From assembly GCA_028716965.1 (NCBI GenBank), contig JAQUOV010000001.1, positions 70,448 to 134,447 of the forward strand: a stretch of 64,000 nt of DNA, in the 5' to 3' direction. This document shows, piece by piece, positions 21,331 to 62,421 of this stretch. A model generated the notes under the pieces. That model was not told where the DNA came from, did no database searches, and saw nothing but the letters and a program-made list of their open reading frames with translations. This DNA comes from Candidatus Omnitrophota bacterium. Its GTDB lineage: Bacteria > Omnitrophota > Gorgyraeia > Gygaellales > Profunditerraquicolaceae. Within the stretch, counting starts at the first letter, position 1. Each line of letters opens with the position of its first letter. Made by a program: the position numbers and the translations under genes.

Positions 21331-22306
21331 CTCTCTCCCTTTCTAAATCAGCTTCAACCATAAGTTTAACCAGTTTTTTAAACTTAATCTTTGGGCTAAA
21401 CCCGAATGTTTTTCTGGCTTTTGTTATATCCCCAACCAATGAAGATGTCTTGCTCGGGCGGATTAATTTAGGATCAATAACCAGGTATTTATCCGGCTTA
21501 AGATTTAAAACGGAAAAAGCCTCCTCCACCCATTCCTTGACGGAATGCGACTGTCCCGTAGCGATAACAAAATCATCCGCTTTATCTAATTGCATAATCT
21601 GCCATGCCGCCTCCATAAACTCTTTGGAATAACCCCAATCAATACGCGCGCTTAAATCCCCTAAAACTAATTTCTTTTGCTTGCCTAGATATATACGTGC
21701 CACAGCTTGAGTAATTTTACGCGTTACATATTCGGGAGTCCTGCGGGGGGATTCATGGTTATATAGTATGGCACCTGATGCAAATAAACCAAAGGCCTGG
21801 CGATAATACCGCGTAAGATAATAAGCAAAGACTTTGGCGCAGGCATACGGGCTTTGGGGGTTAAAAAAGGTAGATTCATTTTGTTTGGCAGTAGGCGTTA
21901 AGCCAAACATATTGGACGTACAAGGTTGAAAATAACGTATCTTATGGTTAACCTGCCGGATAATCTCTAAAATACGGCCTACTGCTGCGCCGGTGATATC
22001 CGCAGAGTAACCCACCATATCATAGCTCCAACTTACATGGTCCTGGTCAGCTTCATTATAAATCTCCTGGGGCCTTACGGAATTGATAATCCTAAAAATG
22101 GAGGTCGCATCAGCAAGGTCGCCGCGGTGCAAGAAAAAATTATGATTAAAAATCTCTCTATTTTGAATCAGATGTTCAATATTGCGCGTGTTACCGGTTG
22201 CAGAGCGGCGGAGCATTCCGTGCACCTGATACCCCTTTTCAAGCAAGACCTCTGCCAAATAACTGCCGTCTTGTCCGGTTACTCCTAAAATCAATGCTTT
22301 TTTCAT
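21323..22306 (-). CDS. gmd: GDP-mannose 4,6-dehydratase
   Basis: MKKALILGVTGQDGSYLAEVLLEKGYQVHGMLRRSA...NTRNIEHL is near-identical in pattern to Gmd N-termini. The YxxxK region is present. Confidence 0.9.
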   Translation of the reverse strand: MKKALILGVTGQDGSYLAEVLLEKGYQVHGMLRRSATGNTRNIEHLIQNREIFNHNFFLHRGDLADATSIFRIINSVRPQEIYNEADQDHVSWSYDMVGYSADITGAAVGRILEIIRQVNHKIRYFQPCTSNMFGLTPTAKQNESTFFNPQSPYACAKVFAYYLTRYYRQAFGLFASGAILYNHESPRRTPEYVTRKITQAVARIYLGKQKKLVLGDLSARIDWGYSKEFMEAAWQIMQLDKADDFVIATGQSHSVKEWVEEAFSVLNLKPDKYLVIDPKLIRPSKTSSLVGDITKARKTFGFSPKIKFKKLVKLMVEADLERERVG

Positions 22307-22321
22307 AATTTATCCTCTTTC

Positions 22322-22750
22322 TTATTTAACAAAACCCCTGATCTTAAAATCCCCGGGGAGTTTCTTTGAGAACTTAAACTTTGAACTTTGATTATCCAGT
22401 TTTACCGGATCCAGCCCGTCTATAACAGCAGTAAACACAACGCTGACAGTATGATATTTAAAATTCAAGCCAAAAGGGTTGGCCCCGTTAATCAGTTCAT
22501 AATAACCGATAGGCCGGATATCCTTAATTCTTTGTCCGGTTTCTTCTTTTACTTTACGCGCTACTGCCTGCTCTAATGACTCGCCCTTAAGCAACCGGCC
22601 TCCGATCACCCACCAATGGCCTTTTTTAGGCTGATTAGCGCGTTTGACTAAAAGGTACTCACCCTTATTATTTTGTACGGCTATATCAACACAAAGAATA
22701 GGCAGATTTTCCAGGATTTTTCTATATTGCTCTCTTGGTATTAAACTCAT
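22322..22750 (-). CDS. gmm: GDP-mannose mannosyl hydrolase (Nudix; Gmm/NudD/WcaH-like)
   Basis: Nudix box GGRLLKGESLEQAVARKVKEETG. The upstream block LPILCVDIAVQNNKGEYLLVKRANQPKKGHWWVIGGR parallels E. coli WcaH. Start trimmed to the ATG at 22750, which forms an ATGA overlap with the upstream stop; the track's longer 161-aa form overlaps the upstream gene by 61 nt. Confidence 0.8.
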   Translation of the reverse strand: MSLIPREQYRKILENLPILCVDIAVQNNKGEYLLVKRANQPKKGHWWVIGGRLLKGESLEQAVARKVKEETGQRIKDIRPIGYYELINGANPFGLNFKYHTVSVVFTAVIDGLDPVKLDNQSSKFKFSKKLPGDFKIRGFVK

Positions 22751-23955
22751 GGAACTACCCTGAATTCCGGCAAGGGCACTATAAACTTGCCGCCTGCCTT
22801 GCGCCATTCTTTTTCCCGCTGATAGAACTCATCAAAAAAAGCCCACGGCAATACCAGAAAATAATCGGGCTTGGCCTTACGCGCATCCTCTTCGGAAACA
22901 ATAGGAATCCATGAGCCGATGGTATATTTACCCCATTTTTCCGGGCTTCTTTCGGCGGCAGCGCTAATCAGCGTATTATCCAGGCCATAATATTGCAAAA
23001 TCACGTTGCCTTTGGTAGAGGCTCCGTAAACATAAACCTTTTTCCCCTTGGCCACCTCTGCTTTGATAAAATCTACGCAACGCCTGCGGTTATCCTCAAT
23101 CCGCCTGGCAAACTGCAATAAATCGCTACGGGTGAATTTTTCTTTAAATTTTATTCCCGTGCCTTTATAATGCCGGGCAAAGATACGGTAACTGCCTCCG
23201 TTAACATCATTTTCTTCAATACGGAACATCTCAAGGCCGTTAGTTTCAAACAAATATTTTAATGAATCAAGCGAATAATATTCCAAGTGCTCATGGCAGA
23301 TATTGCCCAGATCATTCTTTTCTAGCATAGGAGCCAGGCACATCAGTTGAGCCACAAATACCCCGTCTTCAGTTAAGGCCATCCGGGCATCTTTAATAAA
23401 TTGATTCGGGTCCTCTAAATCATAAAACATCCCGATAGCGGTGATAACTTTGGCTTTACCGAATCCCCACTTCTTCGCCAACTCCATATAGCGGCTGTAA
23501 TTCCAGAAATCATGCATTACATAGGAAGTGTTTTCTTCAAGCATCGGGATAAGGTTATCCGCCGGCTCGCAACCTACTTTGCGGATGCCTTTGGCGGTAT
23601 AAGCAGCAAGCATCGTCCCGTCATTGGCTCCGATATCCAATACCACATCGCCCGGCTTTAACCGGACAATAGATTCTACCTGCGCGGTTATATCCCTTAA
23701 CGCCAGGCGCATTGTATCAGTTACTCCTGACCTGTACCAGTAATGACGGGAATATAACAGCTCCTGGGGAGCGCTATGACGCAACTGCAATAAATTGCAT
23801 TTTGCGCAGATCACCAGGTCAAGAGGAGCCTTCAAACCTTTCCCGACCATCTCTTTAGGCACAAAATCATTGACGTACTGCTCGCCTAAAGAAAACACAT
23901 CTTCAAGTTTTTGCGATCCGCACAACCGGCAGCTTGTTCGGGTAATTGTCTCCAT
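22747..23955 (-). CDS. NDP-sugar C-methyltransferase-like SAM-dependent methyltransferase (TylCIII/NovU-type architecture)
   Basis: N-terminal Cys pairs (CRLCGS...CAKC), a putative zinc-binding domain, then motif I VVLDIGANDGTMLAAY, then a C-terminal extension. This three-part layout is characteristic of sugar 3-C-methyltransferases. Confidence 0.55.
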   Translation of the reverse strand: METITRTSCRLCGSQKLEDVFSLGEQYVNDFVPKEMVGKGLKAPLDLVICAKCNLLQLRHSAPQELLYSRHYWYRSGVTDTMRLALRDITAQVESIVRLKPGDVVLDIGANDGTMLAAYTAKGIRKVGCEPADNLIPMLEENTSYVMHDFWNYSRYMELAKKWGFGKAKVITAIGMFYDLEDPNQFIKDARMALTEDGVFVAQLMCLAPMLEKNDLGNICHEHLEYYSLDSLKYLFETNGLEMFRIEENDVNGGSYRIFARHYKGTGIKFKEKFTRSDLLQFARRIEDNRRRCVDFIKAEVAKGKKVYVYGASTKGNVILQYYGLDNTLISAAAERSPEKWGKYTIGSWIPIVSEEDARKAKPDYFLVLPWAFFDEFYQREKEWRKAGGKFIVPLPEFRVVP

Positions 23956-23956
23956 A

Positions 23957-25075
23957 CTAATTCACCTTTTGTTTTAAGATTAATTCTAAAGCGCTAATAA
24001 CCTGATCAATCTCTTTTTCAGTCAGGGCAAGGCCGGAAGGCAAATACAGCCCCTGGCGGCTGATACGCTCAGTAACCGGATACCTTTCTTTCTTAAACAA
24101 ACCAAGTTTGTGTAAGGCCGGCTGTTGATGCAAACCGATAAAAAACGGCCGCGTAGCAATCCCCTTTTTAGCCAGGCCGTCCATAACATCCTTTGCCTTT
24201 AAACCAAAACCCTTGCCCAGCTCAATACAATACATCCAATAAACCATTTTTGCCCAGGATTTCTCTGTCTGGGTTTTTATGCCATTAAACTTGAGCAGGC
24301 TCTTACGGTAGTATTCCCCTAACCTGCGCTTAATTTGAATAAATTCATCAATACGCTCCATCTGGGCTATTCCCACGGCTGCCTGTAAATTAGTCAGGCG
24401 GAAATTATAGCCTAACTCCGTATGGTAAAATCTTTTCTCCGGCCGGAAACAGAGATTGCGGTAAGACTCTGCGCGCTTGGCCATCTTTGAATCAGAGGTA
24501 AGCACCATTCCGCCCTCGCCAGTCGTAATTATCTTATTAGCATAGAATGACCATGCGCTGATATGCCCTAACGCTCCGCATTTACGGCCTTTATACTCTG
24601 CGCCATGGGCTTCCGCAGCATCTTCAACCACAACAAGATTGCGTTTTTTGGCTATATCTAAAAGCGGATCCATATCTACCGGATGGCCGTAAATATGCAC
24701 CGGCATAATTGCCTTGGTTTTGGGCGTCAGACGGCTTTCAATCTGGCTTACATCCATATTCCAAGTCTCAGCTTCTGCATCTACTAATACCGGTATTGCG
24801 CCAAGCCGGATAGCTGCCAAAGCGCAGGAGATGATCGTAAAAGCCGGCATAATTACCTCATCCCCCTTACCTATGCCTGCGGCAAACAAGGCTGTTTCCA
24901 GGGCTGCGGTGCCGTTACAAACCGTAACCCCATGCTTTGTCCCTATATAATCGCTGAATTTACGCTCAAACTCGGCGACAAACGGCCCATCGGAAGAGAT
25001 CCAGCCGCTCTCGATGCACTGAGCGAGTAATTCTTTTTCGCGTCTGCCGATTATCGGCTGATTAACCGGTATCAT
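23957..25075 (-). CDS. PLP-dependent sugar aminotransferase (DegT/DnrJ/EryC1/StrS family; perosamine-synthase-like)
   Basis: PVNQPIIGRREKELLAQCIESGWISSDGPFVAEFERKFSDYIG and the later ISAWSFYANKIITTGEGG (Lys region) are typical of DegT-family enzymes. Confidence 0.85.
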   Translation of the reverse strand: MIPVNQPIIGRREKELLAQCIESGWISSDGPFVAEFERKFSDYIGTKHGVTVCNGTAALETALFAAGIGKGDEVIMPAFTIISCALAAIRLGAIPVLVDAEAETWNMDVSQIESRLTPKTKAIMPVHIYGHPVDMDPLLDIAKKRNLVVVEDAAEAHGAEYKGRKCGALGHISAWSFYANKIITTGEGGMVLTSDSKMAKRAESYRNLCFRPEKRFYHTELGYNFRLTNLQAAVGIAQMERIDEFIQIKRRLGEYYRKSLLKFNGIKTQTEKSWAKMVYWMYCIELGKGFGLKAKDVMDGLAKKGIATRPFFIGLHQQPALHKLGLFKKERYPVTERISRQGLYLPSGLALTEKEIDQVISALELILKQKVN

Positions 25076-25488
25076 TTAACCCTCACCTTAGGCGTGAAAT
25101 TCACCTTATCCACTCCCTGAAGATATGGCCCGTTTTTGATTTCAAAAATAACAGCTTTCGTAATAAATTTAAAAGCATGGCCTGCGCCGGCAATAAAAAT
25201 TATATCCCCGGCATTTAGCTTGCGGCTTCTTAAGAAGACCCTTTTTAGGGAGTAGAAGTCAATGCGCACCTGCCCGCTTTTAATAACTAAAACTTCTTGA
25301 GCGTGCGTAGTAACGCGCTTAATCGGCTTATGCATATGCGGCATAATCTGATAACCTTTAGGCCGGGACATTGCCCCAAGCTGCAAAGGGTAATCATTGA
25401 GTGAGAAGAAATTTAACGCTTCCGGTTTATAACCCTTGCGGATAATCAAGGCGATAATATTGCCGTTGTGCGTAATTTTCTCAATCAT
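25072..25488 (-). CDS. Cupin-fold NDP-4-keto-6-deoxyhexose 3,4-ketoisomerase-like protein (FdtA/QdtA/WxcM-like)
   Basis: 138 aa. MPHMHKPIKRVTTHAQEVLVIKSGQVRIDFY has the His pair of cupin sugar isomerases. It is translationally coupled (4-nt overlap) to the aminotransferase. Confidence 0.5.
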   Translation of the reverse strand: MIEKITHNGNIIALIIRKGYKPEALNFFSLNDYPLQLGAMSRPKGYQIMPHMHKPIKRVTTHAQEVLVIKSGQVRIDFYSLKRVFLRSRKLNAGDIIFIAGAGHAFKFITKAVIFEIKNGPYLQGVDKVNFTPKVRVK

Positions 25489-27817: not shown

Positions 27818-28633
27818 TTATTTTATTAATCTGGTTGCGGCTTGCTTTAAAATCTGTCTGGAGCCCATGTTAATAAATTTCAAATAAAAAGAAAAATATG
27901 TGGCAATAAGTATGCCCTTGGGGACAAAAGGCGCAAATTCATCTATCACAGCCTTGGTGCACCTAAATATTTTAAAAAGTCCACCGGAGAGATTATTCCC
28001 GTGCAGCACATAAATTGCTAACGGCTCATCAATAAAACCTATTTTATGTTTTCTGGCAATAGATAGCCATAATATATAATCTTCAACGGTAATAAACCTT
28101 TTATCTTCGGGGAAAAAATATTGTTCGGAGTTTTTTTGATTCACCATCATAACTGTAAGGCATGCGATAAAATTGAGCTCAAGGTAGAGCCGGTTAAAGA
28201 CATTGCCCGCATTCGCTTTCTGAGGGGTTATTCCGGAGATCTTCCCATTTGTCTTTATAAAACATTTTGAATAAACAAGAAAATAATCATTATTATTCTC
28301 TAGGAAATCTACCCCCAGCTTAAGTTTATCCGGTAACCACAGGTCATCACTGTCTAAAAAAGCAAGGTATTTACCTAAGGCATTTCTTATGCCTATATTC
28401 CTTGGTCTTGCGGGGCCACCAGAATTATAATCAGACTCAATAAGTCGGATTCGACTATCTTGTTGGATAATCTCCTTTAGCACATCCCGGCTTCTGTCTG
28501 TTGAACGATTATCAACAACTAACATTTCCCAATTCTGGTATGTCTGCGCCTGAACAGAACGAATAGTCTCCCGTACAGTATTCTCGGCATTAAACATGGG
28601 AATAATTACTGAAACTAACGGATTATTTGCCAT
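27818..28633 (-). CDS. Family 2 glycosyltransferase
   Basis: VSVIIPMFNAENTVRETIRSVQAQTY, WEMLVVDNRSTDRS and LDSDD. Start trimmed to the ATG at 28633 (MANNPLVSVIIP); the longer track ORF would overlap the upstream SDR gene by 134 nt. Confidence 0.85.
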   Translation of the reverse strand: MANNPLVSVIIPMFNAENTVRETIRSVQAQTYQNWEMLVVDNRSTDRSRDVLKEIIQQDSRIRLIESDYNSGGPARPRNIGIRNALGKYLAFLDSDDLWLPDKLKLGVDFLENNNDYFLVYSKCFIKTNGKISGITPQKANAGNVFNRLYLELNFIACLTVMMVNQKNSEQYFFPEDKRFITVEDYILWLSIARKHKIGFIDEPLAIYVLHGNNLSGGLFKIFRCTKAVIDEFAPFVPKGILIATYFSFYLKFINMGSRQILKQAATRLIK

Positions 28634-29597
28634 TTTTAAAGTATTTTTTGCAGAATCGCAAAGTAGCATCAATTTCTTCGTTAAAATTGGATAGCAGGGA
28701 AAAACCGGTTGCCTTAAGCTTGTCTGACCGATAATCAAGCTTCTGCATAACTTCATTCTTCTGTGCTTGTTGCCGCTTAATAGGAGGAATAAAACCTAAA
28801 ATCTCTTTACACCTCCCAGCAATAATCTCTGCTAATTCAAAAACAGAGGTTGATTTTGCTTCCCCCACATTAAATATCCCATTACTGCATTTGTCCATAG
28901 GAATAAACAATGTATATTCTATGGCTCTAATTATATCTGTCAAAGTAATAAAATTTCTACTTTGTAGGCCTGACGAATTTAGAATAAGCTTTTGCGTAGT
29001 CACTGCTTGCCTGCACAAATCGTTTACAATGAGTTTCCACCGGTTAATAAAAGGATCCGCCGGAACACCAAATCCATTTGCAGGCCTTAAGATAATTCCA
29101 GGTAGTTTTCTTTCAAAGCCCGCGGCAACAACAAAATCTTCGGCAGCCCGGTGCGTAACTGCATAGGCGTGGCGCGGGCAAGGAACAGTTTCTTCCGTAA
29201 TTGTCCCAGAAAGCGGCGCTCCGTAAACATGTATAGTTGATAAATAGATAATCCGTTTTACCCCGGCATTCTGGGCGGCTTCAATGAGATTAAGAGTGCC
29301 AAGGGTGTTTATCAAGAAAGCCTTTTGCGGATCAGCAAAACTATCAACCTCATTTAAAGAAGCAAGATGAATTACAAAATCAACCCCCTTGCAGGCTGAA
29401 TTTAAAGTTTTCTTAGATGAAACATCTATTTTTACCACATCAAGGCTATTATCTCTGACCCAGCGCGGATAGCTCCTATCATCAGTGCTATGCGCTCCTA
29501 ATCTTAAGGAATAATCCGGATTCTTAGAAAATGCAAGCGCGGCCCTTCCGCCTAAATAGCCTAATCCACCGGTAATTAAAATTATTTTTTTTGCCAT
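28623..29597 (-). CDS. NAD-dependent epimerase/dehydratase (extended SDR)
   Basis: KIILITGGLGYLGGRAAL Rossmann motif and a YAVTHRAAE (YxxxR/K) region. Confidence 0.75.
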   Translation of the reverse strand: MAKKIILITGGLGYLGGRAALAFSKNPDYSLRLGAHSTDDRSYPRWVRDNSLDVVKIDVSSKKTLNSACKGVDFVIHLASLNEVDSFADPQKAFLINTLGTLNLIEAAQNAGVKRIIYLSTIHVYGAPLSGTITEETVPCPRHAYAVTHRAAEDFVVAAGFERKLPGIILRPANGFGVPADPFINRWKLIVNDLCRQAVTTQKLILNSSGLQSRNFITLTDIIRAIEYTLFIPMDKCSNGIFNVGEAKSTSVFELAEIIAGRCKEILGFIPPIKRQQAQKNEVMQKLDYRSDKLKATGFSLLSNFNEEIDATLRFCKKYFKNGK

Positions 29598-29603
29598 CTA
29601 CCT

Positions 29604-31130
29604 TTAGATAAAAACCCTTTCGGTATATCTTTCTAATAAATCAGATTTCAACCTATCGTTTAGGACATAATGAAAAGGAGACTTGGTTATTCTTGGTATG
29701 CTCGATATATCCCCTACCAGTTCCCGTATCTTGGGATCAGAATTGTAAATCTCATATGCTTCAGGATCAAGGCCCCCGTAAGTATTAAATGTGATATTAA
29801 AAAACAGCTGGAGCCGATTGAGAAGCTCAATCTTCTTTTCATCAATCCACGGCCGGAATTTAAGGTCAAGGTCTCCATACATGTCAGTTTTACTCCATTC
29901 TTCAAATCGGTCCGGAAATACCAGGCCATACTTTGAAATCATTATATCCGTAAGCGGCGCTCCGGGATAAGGCATATATTGATAAATAGCCATTCTAGAG
30001 GCCGGATTTATATTTTTAAAATCTTTGCATAAATTAACTGTTGCGCGAATATCTTCATCAGTCTCAAAAGGAAATCCCAAAATAAATGTATGCACCGTGG
30101 CTATTCCCATATCATAAAGGCGCTTATTCAATAATTTCATCTTTTCATAACTGGCTCTTTTATTTAATATAGCCTGAATTTTAGGGGAGCCAGTTTCCGG
30201 AGAATAAGCAACATAATCACAGAATCCGGGCAACTCTTTTATTACCCTGTCATGATAAGTATTAAAGTTGCTGCGGATTGCCGATATTTTGTAGCCTTTA
30301 CTCTTAAAAATACGTATAATCTCTACCGCCCTATCCACATCAAGTATGAAATTTTCATCAGACATCTCAAAAACGTCAAAACCGAAATTACGATTCAAAT
30401 AATCAGCTTCCTCCACAACCCGCTCAACATTAAAAGGCCTCCATGGCTTGGCTACACCAATATCGATTCCCCCTTTATAACAGTAAGTACAATTAAACGG
30501 ACAACCGCGTGAAGTAGTAAGTGTAGCAAGAATGGGATATTGCGCAGGATTTAAGTGTTCTGCAAAATGATGCCAAGCCGGCATAGGCAAGACGTTTAGC
30601 GAATCAAGCTGTGCATGCGCGGGCGTCTTTACAATCTTGTCGTTATTTTTAAAATACAGACCGTGGACACTATCCAGCGGCTTATTCCCGGCAATCGCTT
30701 TAGCTAATTCTACCACCGTATAGTCAGCCTCCCCGTAAACAATAATATCCACAAGCGGATGCAGTATCGTTTTTTCCGGGAAAATTGTAGGATGCACTCC
30801 GCCCCATACCAAAGGTACATCCTTATCGTATTTGGAGCGCAACCTATTAGCGATATCAAGGCCGTCCATAATCTGTGACCCGGTCATCGTCGAAATGCCT
30901 ATAAAAAGTATTTCGTCCAGGTCAGATATTTTTTTAAGCAATTCGTCGGTCGTATTTAACCTATGGTCGAGCAGGAGCACAGGAAAACCCGCAGATTCAA
31001 GCGTGGCAGCTAAGACCATAATTGAAAGTGCCGGATAAAGCCTTTTTACTTGATGAGTATCACGCCTGCGTTCTTTAGCATAACCCTGCGTCGGCCGCGG
31101 GTATATCAGTACGATATGTTTATTTTTCAT
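29604..31130 (-). CDS. B12-binding radical SAM enzyme (class B)
   Basis: N-terminal cobalamin-binding-like domain (HIVLIYPRP...) and a radical SAM cluster TSRGCPFNCTYCYKG. Confidence 0.8.
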   Translation of the reverse strand: MKNKHIVLIYPRPTQGYAKERRRDTHQVKRLYPALSIMVLAATLESAGFPVLLLDHRLNTTDELLKKISDLDEILFIGISTMTGSQIMDGLDIANRLRSKYDKDVPLVWGGVHPTIFPEKTILHPLVDIIVYGEADYTVVELAKAIAGNKPLDSVHGLYFKNNDKIVKTPAHAQLDSLNVLPMPAWHHFAEHLNPAQYPILATLTTSRGCPFNCTYCYKGGIDIGVAKPWRPFNVERVVEEADYLNRNFGFDVFEMSDENFILDVDRAVEIIRIFKSKGYKISAIRSNFNTYHDRVIKELPGFCDYVAYSPETGSPKIQAILNKRASYEKMKLLNKRLYDMGIATVHTFILGFPFETDEDIRATVNLCKDFKNINPASRMAIYQYMPYPGAPLTDIMISKYGLVFPDRFEEWSKTDMYGDLDLKFRPWIDEKKIELLNRLQLFFNITFNTYGGLDPEAYEIYNSDPKIRELVGDISSIPRITKSPFHYVLNDRLKSDLLERYTERVFI

Positions 31131-31927
31131 GCCTTACGCTTCCATGGTAAGAATTCTTTTTCGATATCTGCGCCTTCTTTACGCAAAGACTTAATATATC
31201 CTTCATTCCTGCCGATACCCTGGTTTATAGCCGCTATTTCCGGATGGGCTTTTAAAAAATCAAGGATATCCTGCATATAAAAAACTTTATCCACGCTTTT
31301 GTATAAACCCTTATATATCTCACTGACAAATAAAAAATCTTTTTCTTCATCAACGGTCCAGCGCATATGCGAAAGATCCTCATCGCAAGCGACATTTAAC
31401 TGCCGGAATATCCGGTTATTCTTCCAGATATACGAGGTTACATATTCCCGCTCCGTTTGTTTCTTGGCCTCTTTCCAAGCCTTCTCCAGCGCCGCAAATG
31501 AAAAAATCTCCGCATCTAAACCGTCGGGATATGTGGGAGGAATACAAATAGTGCCATAATCAACGTTCCCTTTATTTTTAAGATAACAATTAATCAATTT
31601 ATCGATTACCTTAGGATCTATTAATGGGCAGTCAGCGGTAATTCTGATAATCGGATCCGCGCAAAATTTACTTGCGGCCTGATAATATCTGTCCAGCACA
31701 TCATCTTCACTGCCGGCAAAGAACTCAACACCGCACTCTTGGGCAACACCAAGAATCGGCCGGTCTATTTCTTTTATGCTGGTTGCCACAATAATTTTTT
31801 CAATTAAATGCGATTTTTTTAACCGGTTTATTAAATGCCATAACATCGGCTTACCCAGGATTTCCCGCAAAACCTTCCCGGGAAGCCGGGTTGAAGACAT
31901 TCTTGCCTGAACGATTGCTGCAATCAT
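31127..31927 (-). CDS. Cytidylyltransferase, SpsF/NeuA-like (CMP-nonulosonate/ulosonate synthetase family)
   Basis: MIAAIVQARMSSTRLPGKVLREILGKPMLWHLINR is the canonical N-terminal nucleotide-binding motif of the CTP-transferase family 3 (SpsF/KdsB/NeuA). Confidence 0.75.
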   Translation of the reverse strand: MIAAIVQARMSSTRLPGKVLREILGKPMLWHLINRLKKSHLIEKIIVATSIKEIDRPILGVAQECGVEFFAGSEDDVLDRYYQAASKFCADPIIRITADCPLIDPKVIDKLINCYLKNKGNVDYGTICIPPTYPDGLDAEIFSFAALEKAWKEAKKQTEREYVTSYIWKNNRIFRQLNVACDEDLSHMRWTVDEEKDFLFVSEIYKGLYKSVDKVFYMQDILDFLKAHPEIAAINQGIGRNEGYIKSLRKEGADIEKEFLPWKRKA

Positions 31928-31940
31928 TTTTACCCCTCTA

Positions 31941-32954
31941 TCAAATTACCATATCCAGCCTAATAATTTCATCAGGGATAATATCTCTTTTTGCCTTTCT
32001 ACCAATAATAAAATCTGTATATCCCGGATTAAGTCCAATACCCGGCCTTTTAAAACTAAGCATATCTTTAGTAATACAGCTGTTCTTAGGGATTCTTTTG
32101 CCGGCGACAATACTGCGCCGGGCGAATTTTAACGTATTTTGTTCAGTTGCTAGGGGCTCCTTAACAGTTGAGCCGAGGATTATTTCGATATGGCGCAGAT
32201 GATCTATCATGGTTTTTAATTCATCAGGCTCCAAAGAAACCGAATAATCAGGGCCCAATTTCGCACGGTCCAATGTAAAATGTTTTTCAATAACTTTAGC
32301 CCCCAACACACCAGCTATCAGCGGCGCAAGATAACCTTCTGTGTGGTCGCAAAATCCGATAATTTCATCAAAGGCAGACTGCAATGTGGCGATTACACGC
32401 AGATTGATCTCTTTTAATGGGGTAGGATAATTTGTATTGGTATGGTAAAGCACGATCTTATCGTTTCCTTCATCTCTTACTGCGTTCCTTGCTATTTCAA
32501 TTTCACCTAAAAACGCTGCCCCGGTAGAGATAAATAACGGCAGTCCGGTTTTTGCGCAATATTTAATAAACGGAGTATTAGTTATATCGCCTGAAACTAT
32601 CTTTATAAAATCAATACCAAAATCAACCATCTCATCAACGCTTTCTTCATCAATAACGCATATTCCGCAGAGAAGTTTCTTGCTTTTAGCAAAAGAAATC
32701 AACTCTTTAATTTCTTCTTTTTTTAAGACCCATTTTTTCCATTCCAGTTTTTTCGGCCCGGGCTGCTTAATATTAAGCTCACTATCAATGATATGCTGAA
32801 ACGAAATTGCATCGGCTCCTGTATGTGCAGCAGTTTCAACCATCTGTTTTGCTATTTCAAAATTTCCCGAGTGATTGACCCCTGCTTCGGCAATAATAAA
32901 AATGCTCCCTTGCTTACCGATAAACTTATTGCCAATCCTGATTTCTTTAGCCAT
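31941..32954 (-). CDS. NeuB-family nonulosonic acid synthase (sialic/legionaminic/pseudaminic-acid-synthase-like) with C-terminal SAF domain
   Basis: FIIAEAGVNHSGNFEIAKQMVETAAHTGADAISFQ (NeuB TIM-barrel N-terminus) and a C-terminal SAF-like segment. Confidence 0.85.
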   Translation of the reverse strand: MAKEIRIGNKFIGKQGSIFIIAEAGVNHSGNFEIAKQMVETAAHTGADAISFQHIIDSELNIKQPGPKKLEWKKWVLKKEEIKELISFAKSKKLLCGICVIDEESVDEMVDFGIDFIKIVSGDITNTPFIKYCAKTGLPLFISTGAAFLGEIEIARNAVRDEGNDKIVLYHTNTNYPTPLKEINLRVIATLQSAFDEIIGFCDHTEGYLAPLIAGVLGAKVIEKHFTLDRAKLGPDYSVSLEPDELKTMIDHLRHIEIILGSTVKEPLATEQNTLKFARRSIVAGKRIPKNSCITKDMLSFKRPGIGLNPGYTDFIIGRKAKRDIIPDEIIRLDMVI

Positions 32955-32972: not shown

Positions 32973-33584
32973 TTAAAACTTATTAAAATGCACTACTTTG
33001 ACAAGATCTCTTTTAGGCACATGTAGTATTCCTTTGGCATCCTTCCAGTACTTACAATCATTCCTTAATCTCTCTACTTTGGGGCTTTCAGCGGGATAGC
33101 CCAAGGCTAAGATTGAATCAATTATGAATCTCTTTGGTATATTCAAAATCATACCTAAAGCCACCCTATTAATTGAACCTATCCAGCAGGAACCCATGCC
33201 TTCTTCCGAAGCCGCCAAAATCATATTCTCCATTGCCGCTCCGACATCCCACTGGTAATTTTGTTTACTAATCTTAGTATTAACTAAAACCAGAATGTAG
33301 GCTACCGGTTGCTCCTCCTCTTTAGGCGTGCCATTTGGCGAAATATAACCTGCCCAAGCCAAAGCATTAAAAACACCCTTAAGCGTTTTTTTGTCATTAA
33401 TAACCATAAATTCCAAAGGCTGCAAGTTCGCACCTGAAGGAGCCAAACGCGCGGTATTTACCAATTTTTTCAGAATTCTTAATGGCACCCCATCCTGTTT
33501 AAATCTCCTTATGGAACGCCTGCTCAAAATGAGCTTATAAACTTGATTTTTCAACTTCGGCATAACGTTAATATGTGATTTCAT
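32973..33584 (-). CDS. Nitroreductase-family flavoprotein
   Basis: LILSRRSIRRFKQDGVPLRILKKLVNTARLAPSGANLQPLEF is the classic nitroreductase N-terminal FMN-binding motif (RRSxRxF...APSxxNxQP). Confidence 0.7.
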   Translation of the reverse strand: MKSHINVMPKLKNQVYKLILSRRSIRRFKQDGVPLRILKKLVNTARLAPSGANLQPLEFMVINDKKTLKGVFNALAWAGYISPNGTPKEEEQPVAYILVLVNTKISKQNYQWDVGAAMENMILAASEEGMGSCWIGSINRVALGMILNIPKRFIIDSILALGYPAESPKVERLRNDCKYWKDAKGILHVPKRDLVKVVHFNKF

Positions 33585-34501
33585 AATTTACGGTACCAGT
33601 TCAATGGATTCAGCCAATATTCATCGTTAACTCTTAAAGTTAAAAGTTTCCTCAAAGCAATGTCAGAGAGTTTACATTTTTTCTCTTCCTTAATCGCAAA
33701 CATAAGCTCATCCATTGTGCGTATCCCGACTAACACGGTGCTAACGCCTTTAATTGACAAACAAAATCTCAAAGCTAACCCAGTCAAATCCTCCCAACTA
33801 TCAATATTCATCGTGCTTTTTATCTTCTTAGCAGCGTTTTTCAAGAAGCTCCAATCATTATCCAAATAAGTTATTTTCTTTGTCAGCATTCCCCTAAAAT
33901 AAGCCGAACGACTTATAACCCCTGTATCATTTTTAACGGCAGCTGGCAATACTTTATCCAATATCCTCTGATCCATAATATTAAACGCAATCTGCAAACA
34001 ATCAAAAAAGCCTTTTTCCAATACGGCTAAACCATCAGCGGGCTCATAAACCGAAGCTCCGAAAAACCTGATTAATCCCTGCTTGCGCAGGTTTTTTAAG
34101 TTTTCCAATATTTCAGGTTGCCTAATTATACCGCCTGTTGCATTATGAATCTGTACAATATCAATGCATTCTCTTTTTAATCTTCTTAAGCTTTTGCCGA
34201 TAGACGCCTTAATTGATAAGGCGTCGCTTCTTTTATCAATATTTATTTTGGTTGCGATATAACAAGGTTCTAGCCCAATAGTATCCCCAAGTAATTTTTC
34301 GCTTTCTCCATAACCGGGCGCAGTATCAAAGAAATTAATTCCATTATCTAAAGCTTTATGGAGCATCTTCTTAACGGCCTGTTTCCCCGGCTTTCCATAT
34401 TCGCCGGGAGCCTTGATACCGTAATCAATACCCAGCTCTGTTGAACCAAAACCGACAACCGATACCTTTAACCCAGTTTTACCTAATATTCTATATCTCA
34501 T
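33581..34501 (-). CDS. Aldo/keto reductase
   Basis: MRYRILGKTGLKVSVVGFGSTELG, then INFFDTAPGYGESEKLLG (catalytic D/Y region). Confidence 0.8.
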   Translation of the reverse strand: MRYRILGKTGLKVSVVGFGSTELGIDYGIKAPGEYGKPGKQAVKKMLHKALDNGINFFDTAPGYGESEKLLGDTIGLEPCYIATKINIDKRSDALSIKASIGKSLRRLKRECIDIVQIHNATGGIIRQPEILENLKNLRKQGLIRFFGASVYEPADGLAVLEKGFFDCLQIAFNIMDQRILDKVLPAAVKNDTGVISRSAYFRGMLTKKITYLDNDWSFLKNAAKKIKSTMNIDSWEDLTGLALRFCLSIKGVSTVLVGIRTMDELMFAIKEEKKCKLSDIALRKLLTLRVNDEYWLNPLNWYRKL

Positions 34502-34593: not shown

Positions 34594-36426
34594 TCAATTG
34601 CCTAAAAAAGGCTCAAGCGTTTCTTCAGAAACCGGTGTAAAATATAAGTCACGTATACGCAGTGATTCGGCTTTAAAACGCGAGCGTTCGGACAAAGACA
34701 GCGAATAGTAATATGTTAACGCCAAAGCAAGCTCTGAAGATGAATAACATACACGGGCAATCCCATCGGGTATAGCAACTAGCGGATTGTGGCTAAAACA
34801 ATTCTGCCTGGCCACAAAAATCACAGGCCTATTGCAAGCTAAGGCCTCAACAAGCGAGCTGGAATGTGTCCCAACCACAACCAATGCCCGGGAAAACTCC
34901 TCTTTAAGGGTCTTATCGCATAACTGCCCGGGCCATTCACCAATTTTTAAACTAAGGGAGCCCATATCCAAAAAAGGATGGCTCTTGATCCGAATCGCTA
35001 TATCCTGCACAAGTAACTTTTTCGCTTCTCGAACAAGGCTTAAGAGTTCAAGCGCCTCATCGTGGATATACGGGAGTAATACCAAAATATTCTTTTTAAT
35101 AACATCTTGATCAATATCAGGAAGATTATCAAACACATGGGCACTGCGTAGAGCAGCGCAAGGCAAGCATCTAAACCCATCGCTAAATGCCTTTGCCATT
35201 TCGCATTGTAATTTGCTGACACACAAAACTGTGTCCGGTACAACCCTGAATCTGACTTCTGTTTTAGTGGGAAAATGATTTAAGAAATTCAGCGAATGCA
35301 TAAACATCTGAACACCAATAAGTTTGGCTTTAGGGAATGCTTCCCGCGCTCCAAAAATAAAAGCCCGGTCAATTACCTGATTTTCGTACCAATCTAGAAT
35401 AATCTCCGGCGAAGGTTGATTTTGCTTAAACCTCATAAAAAAACGATAAATAAGCACTGCATACATAGGACCGGAAAAAAGCGCAAATCTTCGTTCCTCT
35501 TTTATTAATGGAGTAATATCTATCCCTAAAAAAGGCATAGTTTTAATACCCCTGCCAAAGAATCTTAACGGATAAAGAATAATACTGGCATAATCCCTAA
35601 AGCGCAAATAATCCTCAGGCAAGACAAACTGATAGTTGCTTTTACGCATCTGCTTATAAAGCGAATAAAAATTCATCTGGGCAATATCCAAAACAGGGTG
35701 AATCATAATACTATAACTTTTGGACTCTAAAAACTGGTACAAACCCGGATAATAAGGATCATAAAATGAATTACTATCTTGGAATGAATTGGCATGGATG
35801 AATGTATCGATAAGTATGCGTGGATGCCCTAAAATGGTTTTTTTCTGCTGTCCGTGCGCCCTAGTGAATGAAGCTGCCATAAGGCGGGATAGTAATTGAC
35901 AGATAAAAAAACAATAATTATGTAAGCTACTTAAGCTTCTTTTTATTGTCTTACCTATAAAGAAATGCCTGTAAAGAATTACTTTAACTCTTTCTTGCCT
36001 TAACCAAGCTGCCAAAACATTCGCCAATCCTTCAGAATCAACAAAAATTATAGTAGGCAACTCTAAAGAATTTTGACTAAAAATTCCCCTAATTATCTCA
36101 ACATAACAACAATTTTGAAAGAGATCGCTTTCGTATACATTTCTGCAAGAAACAGATTCAAACCACCATTCTTTATTGGTGCCCCGTAAATCGTTTAATT
36201 CATCCAGCCAATCAATGAACGGTTTACGAATTCGTTCAGCAACAATATTATGCAGTTTACCGACTATTATTTGCCTAAAATGGCTCGGCAGTTTATTTTC
36301 AAGGGGATTAACGGCTGAAAAATCTTTACCAAGATAAAGCCAGTTTATTGATTGACCGCGGTTCTTAAATCTTTTTACCGCGTAAGCATAATAACTAACT
36401 GGCAAGATTAATACTGAAGCGCTCAT
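34594..36426 (-). CDS. Large (610 aa) uncharacterized protein, possible GT-B-like transferase
   Basis: No canonical motif. The C-terminal VVVGTHSSSLVEALACNRPVIFV loosely resembles the donor-binding region of GT-B / glycerophosphotransferase folds. Confidence 0.3.
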   Translation of the reverse strand: MSASVLILPVSYYAYAVKRFKNRGQSINWLYLGKDFSAVNPLENKLPSHFRQIIVGKLHNIVAERIRKPFIDWLDELNDLRGTNKEWWFESVSCRNVYESDLFQNCCYVEIIRGIFSQNSLELPTIIFVDSEGLANVLAAWLRQERVKVILYRHFFIGKTIKRSLSSLHNYCFFICQLLSRLMAASFTRAHGQQKKTILGHPRILIDTFIHANSFQDSNSFYDPYYPGLYQFLESKSYSIMIHPVLDIAQMNFYSLYKQMRKSNYQFVLPEDYLRFRDYASIILYPLRFFGRGIKTMPFLGIDITPLIKEERRFALFSGPMYAVLIYRFFMRFKQNQPSPEIILDWYENQVIDRAFIFGAREAFPKAKLIGVQMFMHSLNFLNHFPTKTEVRFRVVPDTVLCVSKLQCEMAKAFSDGFRCLPCAALRSAHVFDNLPDIDQDVIKKNILVLLPYIHDEALELLSLVREAKKLLVQDIAIRIKSHPFLDMGSLSLKIGEWPGQLCDKTLKEEFSRALVVVGTHSSSLVEALACNRPVIFVARQNCFSHNPLVAIPDGIARVCYSSSELALALTYYYSLSLSERSRFKAESLRIRDLYFTPVSEETLEPFLGN

Positions 36427-37469
36427 AAAAACATGTTCTTTCTATTTAACCCATCTACAAAAAAACTTTTGATCAAATGGCGATTTTTAATTTTCAGCCT
36501 CTTCCTGTTCCGCAGAGGCCACGGTGTAAGATCCTTATAGAAACTATGGCATTTCTTGCATAATACAGGAGGAGACAACCGCTTCATCGAGCTGCGGATA
36601 GCCTCTGCGCGCTCCGATGCCCATATCTGACTAATACTTCCGTCTGACATTATATTACCGATCTTAAGCTCAAGATTCATATCTATACAACAGAGTGTTG
36701 CATCGCCAGTAGCGCTCACTGCCAGCATCTCAAAAGGTATTGAGCAAGGTTTCGGGATTTTAAGAATATAGTCCTTTGCCGCATGCAATACATTCTCTGC
36801 TGGAACCTGGCCTGCCCAGTCAATGCTGTCCACCGTCACCAGGCTGGTATTCTTAAATTTCTCAACAAATTGAAAACTTTCATAAAATTTATCAGTTGAA
36901 TCCTGATTTACCATGTTCTTTATAATGCCCACATGAACCGCTACATCAAATTTCTTCAGCCTATCCCTCTCCTCTAAAAGGAACCTAATATTATCCTTTA
37001 CTGTGGTAAATGACCCGCCGGTGCGTATTTTGGCGTAACTGTCATTAGAAAAACCATCAGGCCAGATACCTATAGAGTCAAAACCGGGAAGTAACAATTT
37101 AGCCACCACCTCCTTTTTTTCCAAAGAGACAGTAGTTGATATCCCGAAGTGAGTATTGGGAAGCTTTTGCCGAGCCCATGAAACAAAAACATCAAAATCA
37201 TTTCTCATGGTTATCTCGCCGAACATATGAAATCCTAAAAGCTTCAAATCCGGATAATCACGAGTTATGTCAACAATCACTTTCTCAAAGACTTCTTTCG
37301 GCATGTTCCCTCTTTTATTATTGGAATAAGTGCGGGGACAAAGCGGGCAACGTAAATTACATGCCCCTGTAATTTCAACAAAAACCTTTTGAGGGGGTGT
37401 AGTCTTCGGATTAAATGAATAATACTGTTGTAAACGTTTTAGTTTTGCAATCATCTGACTACTCGACAA
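36423..37469 (-). CDS. Radical SAM enzyme with C-terminal SPASM/twitch-like Cys-rich domain
   Basis: VEITGACNLRCPLCPR (CxxxCxxC) and a C-terminal CCIDMN...GNIMSDGSISQIWAS...CKKCHSF. Confidence 0.75.
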   Translation of the reverse strand: MSSSQMIAKLKRLQQYYSFNPKTTPPQKVFVEITGACNLRCPLCPRTYSNNKRGNMPKEVFEKVIVDITRDYPDLKLLGFHMFGEITMRNDFDVFVSWARQKLPNTHFGISTTVSLEKKEVVAKLLLPGFDSIGIWPDGFSNDSYAKIRTGGSFTTVKDNIRFLLEERDRLKKFDVAVHVGIIKNMVNQDSTDKFYESFQFVEKFKNTSLVTVDSIDWAGQVPAENVLHAAKDYILKIPKPCSIPFEMLAVSATGDATLCCIDMNLELKIGNIMSDGSISQIWASERAEAIRSSMKRLSPPVLCKKCHSFYKDLTPWPLRNRKRLKIKNRHLIKSFFVDGLNRKNMFL

Positions 37470-38967
37470 GATTCAATAAACCACTTTCTAAAAATTCATT
37501 TTTTAATTCATCGTAAATCTTTTGCCCTTCCGGAGTTTCAGCTTCAGCTTTTCGAATCTCCGTCCACCGGGATTCCGGGAATTTCACATACATATTAAAT
37601 GTCTTCACCAGGCCATTAACTTCTGATTGTGGAAATTGAGGCATATTCAAAAGTGAACCGCCAATAACAACTGACTGTACAATATCTTCGTAACTGATAA
37701 AACCTAAGCGCTCACATTCATCCCGTAACGGCGTACCATGAAACGGCGTAAATGGATAAGCATTACGATCCCATGATCTCACGAGCCGGTTAAACCTAAT
37801 AGTATCAAATGCAAGATCCCTGGTTTCATGAGGAAATCCTATAAGATTATTTACGCTGAAAGGAATGCCGGATTCTTCAATTAGCCTGAATTTTTCCAGC
37901 ATCGCCTGGTTGCTTATTCTACGATTGAGCACATTCTGCCTGAATTTCTCATTACCATGCTCAATACCAAATGACATCCGTGCGCAGTTGATCTTTTTTA
38001 AAGCGGCTAATCTGTCTTTGGTTATTGTTTCTACGCGTGTCTGGCACCAAAATGGTAACTTAATTTGTTGATACATTGAACAAAATTCCTCAAACTCTTC
38101 ATTAGTCCAACACAAAAATGTATCTGCCCAAAAATACAAATACTCAGCCTTCATTGTATCTTTGTAAAATAATAATTCTTTAAGGATATTTTCGTTTGTT
38201 TTTTTGCGTAAAAAAGAGCGCCCCTGTTCTTTCCGGTAAAGGATCATCTGCGCAGGAGAATTACAATACGCGCACGTATTGGGACAACCGCGGAATGTTT
38301 CAACGGGAAACATCCTATAAACCTTGCCCCCCATGGGCCGGTAAAAACGCGCTTCTTCAAAAATCGACATATCAATCAATGGATTTTTATTTATATCTAC
38401 CATCCTGAGCGGATTTTTCTTGATGGTTCCGTCTCCTTGCTTGACCCATAAATTCGTAACATCATCGTATTTCAAGCCGTTTTCCAGCCGATAACACAAC
38501 TCGACTAACGCATCCTCACCTTCACCGCGACAAATAATATCTACTTCCGGATAGCTTAATACTAAATCGGGGGCAAAAGTCGGAAAAACTCCCCCCGCAA
38601 TCGCGGGTATTTCCAGATCGCTCACCTTTGATAAAAGCTTAATCCCAAGCTTAAACATATCTTCCGTGCAGGAAAGCCCGATCAAATCCGGTTTAAAATC
38701 CAAAACGCTTGAGCGAAAATCATCAAAACAGTTTGTTGTTTTGCATGAAATCTGGCGCGGCATTTCAAACGGACGGGCCATTAATCGGTCAGATTTTGAC
38801 TTATCCGAATCCGCTTCCTTACCGTCAACCGACTTGTAGTAAGTTGTATCAAATAGCTGAACCTCATATCCTGCCCGTTTCAAAACAGCAGATAATAACC
38901 CAATAGCCGAGGGAAGCATATTCATTCCTCTTGCATTCGGATAAACAAGCATAACTTTAAACGCCAT
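37459..38967 (-). CDS. B12-binding radical SAM enzyme (class B)
   Basis: MAFKVMLVYPNARGMN...GYEVQLFD (B12 domain) and FRGCPNTCAYCNSP (CxxxCxxC). Confidence 0.8.
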   Translation of the reverse strand: MAFKVMLVYPNARGMNMLPSAIGLLSAVLKRAGYEVQLFDTTYYKSVDGKEADSDKSKSDRLMARPFEMPRQISCKTTNCFDDFRSSVLDFKPDLIGLSCTEDMFKLGIKLLSKVSDLEIPAIAGGVFPTFAPDLVLSYPEVDIICRGEGEDALVELCYRLENGLKYDDVTNLWVKQGDGTIKKNPLRMVDINKNPLIDMSIFEEARFYRPMGGKVYRMFPVETFRGCPNTCAYCNSPAQMILYRKEQGRSFLRKKTNENILKELLFYKDTMKAEYLYFWADTFLCWTNEEFEEFCSMYQQIKLPFWCQTRVETITKDRLAALKKINCARMSFGIEHGNEKFRQNVLNRRISNQAMLEKFRLIEESGIPFSVNNLIGFPHETRDLAFDTIRFNRLVRSWDRNAYPFTPFHGTPLRDECERLGFISYEDIVQSVVIGGSLLNMPQFPQSEVNGLVKTFNMYVKFPESRWTEIRKAEAETPEGQKIYDELKNEFLESGLLNLVE

Positions 38968-42113: not shown

Positions 42114-42122
42114 CTTACCCTC

Positions 42123-42944: not shown

Positions 42945-42949
42945 TTTAT

Positions 42950-43723: not shown

Positions 43724-43724
43724 T

Positions 43725-51339: not shown

Positions 51340-51342
51340 ATC

Positions 51343-52410: not shown

Positions 52411-52425
52411 ATGACTAACCTCACG

Positions 52426-53316: not shown

Positions 53317-53336
53317 AATTTTATCCCTTTAAGACC

Positions 53337-54353: not shown

Positions 54354-54369
54354 AATATAAATTTCTCCC

Positions 54370-62412: not shown

Positions 62413-62421
62413 TTTACCTCC

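Follow-up and report, generated by a model that had tools for sequence, protein, structure and literature searches.

A cobalamin-type radical SAM protein associated with nonulosonic acid biosynthesis genes in a surface-glycan cluster of Candidatus Omnitrophota

Background

Nonulosonic acids (NulOs), a group to which the sialic, legionaminic and pseudaminic acids belong, are sugars found on the flagella, capsules and lipopolysaccharide of bacteria, where they shape host and phage recognition. To our knowledge, all of their tailoring is polar chemistry (N-acylation, O-acetylation, and N- or O-methylation), and we know of no radical S-adenosylmethionine (SAM) step in the canonical neuraminic (Neu), legionaminic (Leg) or pseudaminic (Pse) acid pathways. 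The locus described here raises the question of what a B12-binding radical SAM protein is doing among genes for making and activating such sugars. The gene in question, which we call the target, lies at 29604-31130 on the minus strand of a 64-kb stretch of contig JAQUOV010000001.1 from a Candidatus Omnitrophota bacterium. That whole stretch is referred to as the window, and positions are those of the window unless a locus name precedes them.

An earlier note on this DNA had placed the target with an SpsF-like cytidylyltransferase and a NeuB-family synthase, had suggested radical C-methylation or similar tailoring of a nonulosonic acid or its precursor, and had remarked that no example was described. 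Our literature searches bear out that remark, having found no paper in which a radical SAM enzyme is tied to the making of nonulosonic, legionaminic, pseudaminic or sialic acids. We find the link of the target to the nonulosonate pathway well supported, and judge from its sequence and gene context that the protein is probably a cobalamin-type radical SAM enzyme of class B architecture, dedicated to NulO tailoring within an Omnitrophota Wzx/Wzy-type surface-glycan cluster. Homology gives no reaction type, and the chemistry may be C-methylation or another radical reaction.

The target gene and its coupling to a cytidylyltransferase

The open reading frame (ORF) runs exactly from 29604 to 31130 and encodes 508 amino acids; its identification in the earlier note as a B12-binding radical SAM gene is borne out by PF02310 and PF04055, both of which score above their cut-offs. 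The protein, the "group A" member among the families discussed below, is 100% identical to MDD5560599.1 (P0121), named "radical SAM protein [Candidatus Omnitrophota bacterium]", and a protein encoded by the same 276,780-bp contig of this metagenome-assembled genome (MAG) matches the adjoining cytidylyltransferase at 100% identity. The start codon is supported by the N-terminus, MxKxVVLIYPRPT, which is kept across 30 orthologues.

All of the window's genes are on the minus strand, in one very long run, and around the target they are transcribed in the order NeuB, cytidylyltransferase, radical SAM, and NAD-dependent epimerase/dehydratase. The overlap of 4 nt reported between target and cytidylyltransferase is present at 31127-31130, but its direction had been reversed: because the genes lie on the minus strand with the cytidylyltransferase upstream, it is the TGA of the transferase that overlaps the ATG of the target, as ATGA (the minus strand reads '...aaggcATGAaaaat'). 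Similarly, the NeuB-family gene said to follow does exist but is transcribed before both the cytidylyltransferase and the target.

The description of the upstream neighbour (31127-31927, minus strand) as SpsF-like also stands. It is a CTP_transf_3 protein (PF02348, 116.5 bits) whose homologues at 55-64% identity bear the JGI name "spore coat polysaccharide biosynthesis protein SpsF", which is annotation only, and it passes no NCBIfam equivalog model (KdsB subfamilies about 75 bits, PseF 36 bits). The gene before it (31941-32954, minus strand) encodes a NeuB-family synthase of the phosphoenolpyruvate-condensing type with a SAF domain (PF03102, 212.7 bits; PF08666). This protein falls under both equivalog cut-offs (299.6 against 399.65 for TIGR03569, and 220.8 against 340.25 for TIGR03586), and we take it to be a second NeuB paralogue that belongs with neither the bona fide NeuB proteins nor PseI, with a product sugar that its sequence does not allow us to assign. 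The two adjacent same-strand genes make up the signature of a NulO cluster, a NeuB together with a CTP_transf_3 protein forming the cytidine monophosphate (CMP) derivative. From 38967 down to 28623 the genes are separated by gaps of 0-92 nt or overlap throughout, an arrangement consistent with a single operon. A scan for promoters and terminators adds nothing further: promoter-like sites are no more frequent than expected by chance, and the intergenic gaps around the target are free of terminator-like sites.

Domains, motifs and predicted fold

The B12-binding domain (PF02310) spans residues 28-142 with 58.4 bits against a cut-off of 32.1, and the Radical_SAM domain (PF04055) residues 206-367 with 78.7 bits against 29.5. 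The CX3CX2C motif at C210/C214/C217 is invariant in 30/30 orthologues. In OxsB, TsrM and TokK, the cobalamin contacts are a downstream Gly-x-Ser-x-Leu, a Gly-Gly of beta4 and a Gly-Glu at the start of alpha5 (PMC9204698). The target has G78-I-S80-T-M82 (GxSxM, with Met in place of Leu) and G110-G111, both in 30/30 orthologues, and G133-E134 at the start of the predicted alpha5, where the Glu is found in 28/30 orthologues and the Gly in 18/30.

The same source, a structural review of cobalamin-dependent radical SAM enzymes, dismisses the Asp-x-His-x-x-Gly "His loop" as a red herring, the three enzymes being base-off and His-off. In the target some 24 residues make up the beta1-alpha1 loop, an unusual length, and the loop carries D24-x-H26 without a Gly at +3; D24 is present in 30/30 orthologues and H26 in 28/30, with Tyr in the other two. 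This arrangement would be compatible with a His contact but is no proof of one. The earlier note had looked to the His/Asp ligand region as a check on the assignment. What the target has there, D24-x-H26, does not speak against the assignment, and the ligand is in any case not diagnostic, because OxsB, TsrM and TokK bind cobalamin His-off (PMC9204698), and for this reason we dropped it as a test of class.

An AlphaFold2 model built from the orthologue alignment (mean predicted local distance difference test score 84.7, predicted template modelling score 0.86) has beta-alpha repeats over residues 5-147. Its best matches in the Protein Data Bank (PDB) are TsrM, AprD4, MgmA, TokK, OxsB and CysS, at 14-20% identity, and the closest solved structures by sequence are CysS (E = 4e-17), TokK (2e-14) and OxsB (8e-14). 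With TokK, CysS, TsrM, MgmA and OxsB the target shares a Rossmann cobalamin domain, a radical SAM barrel and a C-terminal domain, along with GxSx[L/M], GG, GE and CX3CX2C. It differs from them in sequence (14-20% identity). The known enzymes act on carbapenams, carrier-bound aryl ethers, tryptophan, a protein glutamine and a nucleotide, and none takes part in nonulosonate biosynthesis. By sequence, the target belongs to the radical SAM superfamily; its architecture and motifs support placement in the cobalamin-dependent (class B) subgroup, and cobalamin binding is probable. It lies outside every curated or structurally characterised family.

Co-occurrence with nonulosonate genes

In a search of 5.8 billion proteins, the target orthogroup comprised 34 sequence clusters at 55-91% identity (E < 1e-125), after which identity drops to about 31%. 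All of its members are from metagenomes or MAGs. We compared the window with ten retrieved orthologue loci picked on contig size alone, giving 11 loci at 59-81% identity, and used as controls 86 loci of generic B12-binding radical SAM paralogues from contig scans, 43 of which are at least 15 kb long. A scan of genome contigs with the orthogroup alignment, in which generic radical SAM motifs were chosen, had yielded only paralogues at 23-32% identity, which were reused as controls; a scan of metagenome contigs with the single target protein gave six distant paralogues and no orthologues.

Genes within 10 kb were counted with hidden Markov models built from NeuB and cytidylyltransferase sequences and run on six-frame ORFs. 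A CTP_transf_3 gene was found in 10/11 orthologue loci as against 3/86 controls (Fisher p = 2e-10; 3/43 and p = 1e-7 for the controls of at least 15 kb), and a NeuB gene in 8/11 as against 2/86 (p = 5e-8; 2/43, p = 6e-6). For the generic sugar gene DegT the corresponding figures are 9/11 and 14/86 (p = 2e-5; 10/43, p = 6e-4), so that NeuB and the cytidylyltransferase are far more enriched near the orthologues than DegT is. Both NeuB and a cytidylyltransferase are absent from a single locus, L096, whose 13.9-kb contig extends only 2.7 kb beyond the gene on its upstream side.

By content, the orthologue loci are clusters of the legionaminic/pseudaminic type. They contain NeuB with SAF, CTP_transf_3, hydrolysing 2-epimerase (Epimerase_2), DegT aminotransferase, PglD-type and GNAT acetyltransferase and PseB/LegB-type dehydratase genes, together with those for a PtmE-like NTP transferase with CBS domains, a GFO/PtmF-like oxidoreductase, a formyltransferase with a PIG-L deacetylase, WbuX/HisH/HisF, MptE-like (Maf-type) proteins and SAM methyltransferases. 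They thus resemble the Leg/Ptm and Pse pathways in their standard dehydratase, aminotransferase, acetyltransferase, 2-epimerase, synthase and cytidylyltransferase and in the PtmE/PtmF-like set, but unlike those pathways they add one to four B12-binding radical SAM genes per cluster. The Formyl_trans_N/C and PIG-L genes are an adjacent pair within the NulO genes of L002, L003, L085 and L093, and the window is without the pair. The pairing suggests N-deacetylation followed by re-formylation, giving N-formyl nonulosonates.

The overlap of cytidylyltransferase stop and radical SAM start recurs in L084 and L085, and in L003 the cytidylyltransferase is adjacent but divergent. Directly upstream of the orthologue is NeuB in L095 and a PtmE-like gene in L092. 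The variation in gene order between the loci speaks for selection on co-location rather than inherited synteny. The tie to nonulosonate biosynthesis and activation proposed in the earlier note is upheld by these counts, by the outgroup and by the sister-family fusions, both described below. The note had also raised the possibility that the radical SAM gene occurs apart from NeuB and SpsF genes. This is not so for NulO genes in general. For the SpsF-type transferase itself, L084 is the one locus with an orthologue (79% identity), and NeuA/LegF-like transferases take its place elsewhere. We dropped the SpsF-type transferase as a specific conserved partner on that account, its family being also very large and mostly unlinked.

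Related families and fusion proteins

The nearest outgroup of the target, P0035 (31% identity; JGI 3300072015), is itself in a NulO cluster with cytidylyltransferase, NeuB, GNAT, PIG-L and KdsA-like genes, where a metallophosphoesterase gene overlaps the radical SAM start and GNAT and NeuB follow. In L027:9238-11371, from a MAG of candidate division KSB1, the upstream cytidylyltransferase ORF overlaps the start of a 26%-identical paralogue that is likewise set in a NeuB/cytidylyltransferase cluster. The NulO association may be ancestral to a wider clade.

Other B12-binding radical SAM families accompany the target in its clusters. "Group B", represented in the window by a 470-aa protein (59765-61177, minus strand; PF02310 and PF04055) beside the WbuX/HisH/HisF acetamidino genes, has orthologues at 68-70% identity in L085:11536-12924, L093:5054-6442 and L094:639-2027. 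It tends to follow a cytidylyltransferase gene or to adjoin the acetamidino trio, and in L085 it is the very next gene after the orthologue of the target. A further family, "group C", is found behind Maf-like genes in L002, L003 and L092.

"Group F" is a family of more than 100 sequence clusters, about 520-530 aa long, some of them from Omnitrophota, Chloroflexota and Deltaproteobacteria, in which fused forms of the radical SAM protein recur. An 868-aa fusion with NeuB and SAF lies directly after a cytidylyltransferase gene in L095 (2848-5454), and its NeuB domain is most similar (42%) to that of the window synthase at 31941-32954. The same domain order occurs in P0122 and P0123 (875-876 aa). 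P0125 (1097 aa; five contigs from different samples) joins the radical SAM protein to NeuB and CTP_transf_3, and P0241 (919 aa) joins it to a NeuC-like Epimerase_2; the partner is an iron-type alcohol dehydrogenase (Fe-ADH) in P0130 (895 aa) and a methyltransferase in P0191 (812 aa). Group F fusion genes lie at L097:3542-6835 and L098:2839-6132. P0125 lies within a conserved module of Fe-ADH, aminotransferase and fusion protein, and this module, in some cases with a separate cytidylyltransferase, has the look of a self-contained route, not described so far, by which a CMP-activated ulosonic acid is made. Such Rosetta-stone fusions indicate that cobalamin-type radical SAM proteins work together with the NulO synthase, the activating enzyme and the epimerase.

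Alternative explanations

Several observations weigh against a dedicated role of the target in NulO tailoring. The protein reaches none of the NCBIfam curated class B families with which it was compared (HpnJ, BchE, ApyD, PhpK, KedN5, HpnR, BzaD, MgmA/MJ_0865, TsrM-type and ladderane radical SAM), the best score being 104 bits against cut-offs of 251-750. The top three partial matches, ApyD (104 bits; cut-off 750), HpnJ (101; 577.6) and BchE (91; 481), are all non-methylases, and the methylase families PhpK, KedN5, BzaD and HpnR score below them. AprD4, a cobalamin-free sugar diol dehydratase, is among the best structural matches. The immediate neighbours of the orthologues differ (cytidylyltransferase, NeuB, PtmE-like, Epimerase_2, methyltransferase and large proteins), so synteny does not fix the exact pathway step. 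L094 and L096 have no NeuB in reach, and the loci number only 11 and are not all independent of one another, L084 being a close relative of the window. The fusions belong to a sister family at 26-30% identity rather than to the target orthogroup, and hence support its assignment by analogy only. Comparison with NCBIfam and the PDB was dropped as a route to the reaction type, as the similarities are too weak and are spread evenly over methylases and non-methylases.

The target could act in the same pathway without methylating anything and, on the model of OxsB, HpnJ or BchE, carry out a rearrangement, a ring contraction or an anaerobic oxidation or hydroxylation on an intermediate of nonulosonate synthesis. 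Sugar rings are what HpnJ and OxsB work on; ApyD, HpnJ and BchE lead the partial matches, OxsB is among the closest solved relatives, and every locus already has conventional SAM methyltransferases. Those partial matches are weak, however, at no more than 104 bits, the top sequence matches among solved structures (CysS and TokK) are methylases, and so are most characterised class B enzymes, so that we regard a non-methylating reaction as rather unlikely. More radically, the protein could be a cobalamin-independent dehydratase like AprD4, with a vestigial N-terminal Rossmann domain, which deoxygenates a sugar diol. In the structural comparison AprD4 comes second only to TsrM among distinct proteins (ranks 5 and 7, TM-score about 0.63-0.71) and has a sequence E-value of 2e-10. 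The conservation of GxSxM and GG in all 30 orthologues and of E134 in 28 of them speaks against a vestigial domain, and the AprD4 family model NF033070 gives 39.3 bits against a cut-off of 500, aligning only with residues 197-399, the radical SAM half; we consider this explanation very improbable.

A different kind of alternative places the target elsewhere in the glycan, its substrate being another sugar, the donor of an acetamidino or N-acyl group, or the repeat unit once assembled, with NeuB and the cytidylyltransferase merely marking large glycan islands. In L094 and L096 the gene lies between a Wzx-like flippase, proteins of about 510 aa and HisH/HisF amidotransferase genes, in L001, L092 and L093 its direct neighbours encode 616-681-aa PFTS_polysacc proteins, and DegT is enriched in the orthologue loci as well. 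Yet the enrichment of NeuB and the cytidylyltransferase is far stronger than that of DegT, three loci have the overlap of cytidylyltransferase stop and radical SAM start, and the sister family is fused to NeuB, cytidylyltransferase and NeuC domains. As for the two aberrant loci, L094 has a cytidylyltransferase 7 kb upstream and the L096 contig is incomplete. On balance a role elsewhere in the glycan seems to us improbable, more so than a non-methylating reaction within the NulO pathway.

Proposed reaction and precedents

If the target tailors a nonulosonate, it would cleave SAM reductively to a 5'-deoxyadenosyl radical. This radical would remove a hydrogen at an unactivated carbon, whether in the nonulosonate itself, in its CMP-activated form or in the hexose that immediately precedes it. 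Cobalamin would then finish the reaction; transfer of a methyl group from methylcobalamin would yield a sugar that is C-methylated or has a homologated N-acyl group. We regard methyl transfer as the single most likely outcome because no other class B chemistry is as common and because the closest solved relatives by sequence, CysS and TokK, are methylases. We put it forward only tentatively, since the best of the curated-family similarities are to non-methylases, HpnJ, OxsB and AprD4 provide other precedents, and ordinary methyltransferases are at hand in every locus. The position directly behind the cytidylyltransferase in three loci and the many invariant Arg and Lys residues of the orthogroup fit an anionic, possibly CMP-linked substrate. 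Among these residues are R21, R22, R30, R57, R208, K219, R237, K276, K324, R379 and R426.

Fom3, with Fom1, is a precedent for a class B radical SAM methylase acting on a cytidylylated substrate. In passages of PMC9204698 and PMC8158854 that cite it, Fom3 appears as a class B radical SAM enzyme that needs cytidylyl-2-hydroxyethylphosphonate as its substrate and methylates an sp3 carbon of it. By analogy, the CMP group may serve the target as a recognition handle. In both cases a class B radical SAM protein is paired with a cytidylyltransferase, there with the Fom1 domain and here by the ATGA coupling that recurs in L084 and L085. The substrate there is a phosphonate and here presumably a 9-carbon ulosonic acid, the cytidylyltransferase here is of the CTP_transf_3 (SpsF/NeuA) type, and a CMP-linked substrate is suggested only by gene order; the likeness drawn is one of gene pairing.

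GenK and GenD1 of the aminoglycoside pathways are class B methylases that carry out radical C-methylation of unactivated sugar carbons. This is the kind of chemistry proposed for the target, a likeness drawn from description only. Their substrates are pseudo-oligosaccharide antibiotics of actinomycetes, in contrast to the nucleotide-activated sugars of a surface glycan considered here.

Genes flanking the target

Directly downstream of the target, after a gap of 6 nt, is a short-chain dehydrogenase/reductase (SDR) gene of the NAD-dependent epimerase/dehydratase type (28623-29597, minus strand; PF01370, 115 bits), which has a 69% orthologue in identical position in L084. The family 2 glycosyltransferase (GT2) ORF beyond it, as listed at 27818-28756, overlaps the SDR gene by 134 nt. 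Its GT2 domain does not start until about residue 49. Translation more likely begins at an internal Met (...LKMANNPLVSVIIP...), and little or none of the overlap would then remain.

Upstream of the synthase gene, on the same strand, are genes for a nitroreductase-family flavoprotein (32973-33584; PF00881, 93 bits) and an aldo/keto reductase (33581-34501; PF00248, 116.8 bits) that overlaps the nitroreductase start, each with a 66% orthologue in L084. They are preceded by a gene for a 610-aa protein (34594-36426, minus strand) that has no Pfam or NCBIfam match and weak similarity to a 572-aa protein of L084, and which is possibly a transferase. Next come a radical SAM/SPASM gene (36423-37469, minus strand; PF13186 and PF04055), whose 72% orthologue in L084 lies between NeuB and the cytidylyltransferase, and a gene for a 502-aa B12-binding radical SAM protein (37459-38967, minus strand; PF02310 and PF04055). 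Among window proteins the latter is the closest relative of the radical SAM domain of the NeuB fusions (28% over 493 aa to that of L095, E = 5e-61).

The SPASM protein matches TIGR04321 in part. This family, spiro-SPASM, is a fusion of an SpsF-like cytidylyltransferase with a radical SAM/SPASM protein, and so resembles the window in linking a nucleotidyltransferase to a radical SAM protein; the window's cytidylyltransferase and SPASM protein match the corresponding halves weakly. The matches reach 19 and 46 bits against a cut-off of 250, and the radical SAM partner in TIGR04321 is a SPASM rather than a B12-binding protein.

The wider surface-glycan cluster

By gene content, the window is a Wzx/Wzy-type surface-glycan cluster. 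Its minus-strand genes include those for a Wzy_C-domain protein of the O-antigen ligase/polymerase family (1450-2742), a PglF-like dehydratase (2743-4569), an initiating Bac_transf transferase (7890-8453), a Wzx flippase (13940-15238) and an LIC12162-family transferase (47343-49097), as well as many GT2 and GT4 glycosyltransferases. The earlier note had called the target the second B12-binding radical SAM gene of the stretch, which is an undercount in a stretch unusually well stocked with radical SAM genes: there are four (8555-10219, 29604-31130, 37459-38967 and 59765-61177, all minus strand) and two SPASM radical SAM genes (36423-37469 and 51343-52410, minus strand). The four B12-binding proteins share only 20-27% identity pairwise, and we therefore regard them as distinct families rather than recent duplicates.

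A complete and bona fide pseudaminic acid pathway occupies 49098-57855 on the minus strand, with PseB, PseC, a class-III aminotransferase, PseG, a methyltransferase, a SPASM radical SAM protein, GNAT, WbqC and PseI. Equivalog scores are 477 bits for PseB (cut-off 408), 507 for PseC (424), 274 for PseG (154) and 468 for PseI (340); the last is a bona fide PseI, at 49098-50144, separate from the synthase next to the target. The other genes of this stretch were assigned by Pfam matches. The class-III aminotransferase, the methyltransferase and the SPASM protein are extra genes inserted among the Pse genes. None of the cytidylyltransferases tested in the window passed the PseF equivalog model, and the candidate Pse activators are the KdsB-like protein at 42950-43849 and the SpsF-like protein at 31127-31927. 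The WbuX/HisH/HisF acetamidino trio lies at 61177-63958 (minus strand).

The KdsB-like cytidylyltransferase, which scores above its subfamily cut-off, and an HpcH/HpaI (pyruvate) aldolase (together 42950-45478, minus strand) belong to a module at 38983-45478. Its other members are methyltransferases, a 2-hydroxyacid dehydrogenase, an SDR, a cyclase and a HAD phosphatase, and L092:17790-21496 has a comparable set (Ldh_2, HpcH_HpaI, CTP_transf_3 and GFO). The module may make a third CMP-activated keto-deoxy acid by way of a pyruvate aldolase instead of a NeuB-type synthase. Another module, for a branched-chain amino sugar, lies at 21323-25488 and consists of a GDP-mannose 4,6-dehydratase, a NUDIX protein, a TylC3-type C-methyltransferase (PF08421/PF08484), DegT and a 138-aa protein that matched no family. 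It recurs in L084 at 59-79% identity, with no match there for the NUDIX gene. Because of its TylC3-type enzyme, we infer that conventional, non-radical C-methylation of a keto-sugar coexists with the radical SAM enzymes.

Proteins annotated in the contig tables as PF27878, "PFTS_polysacc", 616-681 aa long, occur in 6/11 loci: at 57803-59752 of the window and at L001:11709-13694, L002:16990-18951, L085:12928-14847, L092:11597-13642 and L093:6447-8297. The 649-aa protein of the window, the one that was scanned, had no match in our local copies of Pfam or NCBIfam. One subgroup always directly adjoins the target orthologue. These proteins may be NulO transferases or partners of the radical SAM proteins.

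Significance

The target represents an orphan class B radical SAM family whose predicted role in nonulosonate tailoring is well supported by gene context, and the family is part of a wider, undescribed association of several B12-binding radical SAM families with NulO clusters in uncultured anaerobes, namely Omnitrophota and other lineages known only from metagenomes and MAGs. It is quite possible, though we would not press the point, that these organisms have an unrecognised radical branch of NulO biosynthesis, in which several cobalamin radical SAM families (A, B, F and others) act on NulO intermediates or CMP-NulOs, possibly with CMP as a handle. The products would be C-alkylated or radically remodelled ulosonic acids of nine or more carbons, outside current glycan databases.

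The fusions to NeuB, cytidylyltransferase and NeuC domains offer a well-defined set of enzymes for reconstitution in vitro. A conserved cobalamin radical SAM step, if real, would add C-H functionalisation to the chemistry of the nonulosonic acids and would predict that candidate phyla make sugars of new structure. Several class B radical SAM families, of the many that are orphans, would gain a substrate class, and surface-glycan synthesis in these organisms would be tied to the supply of vitamin B12.

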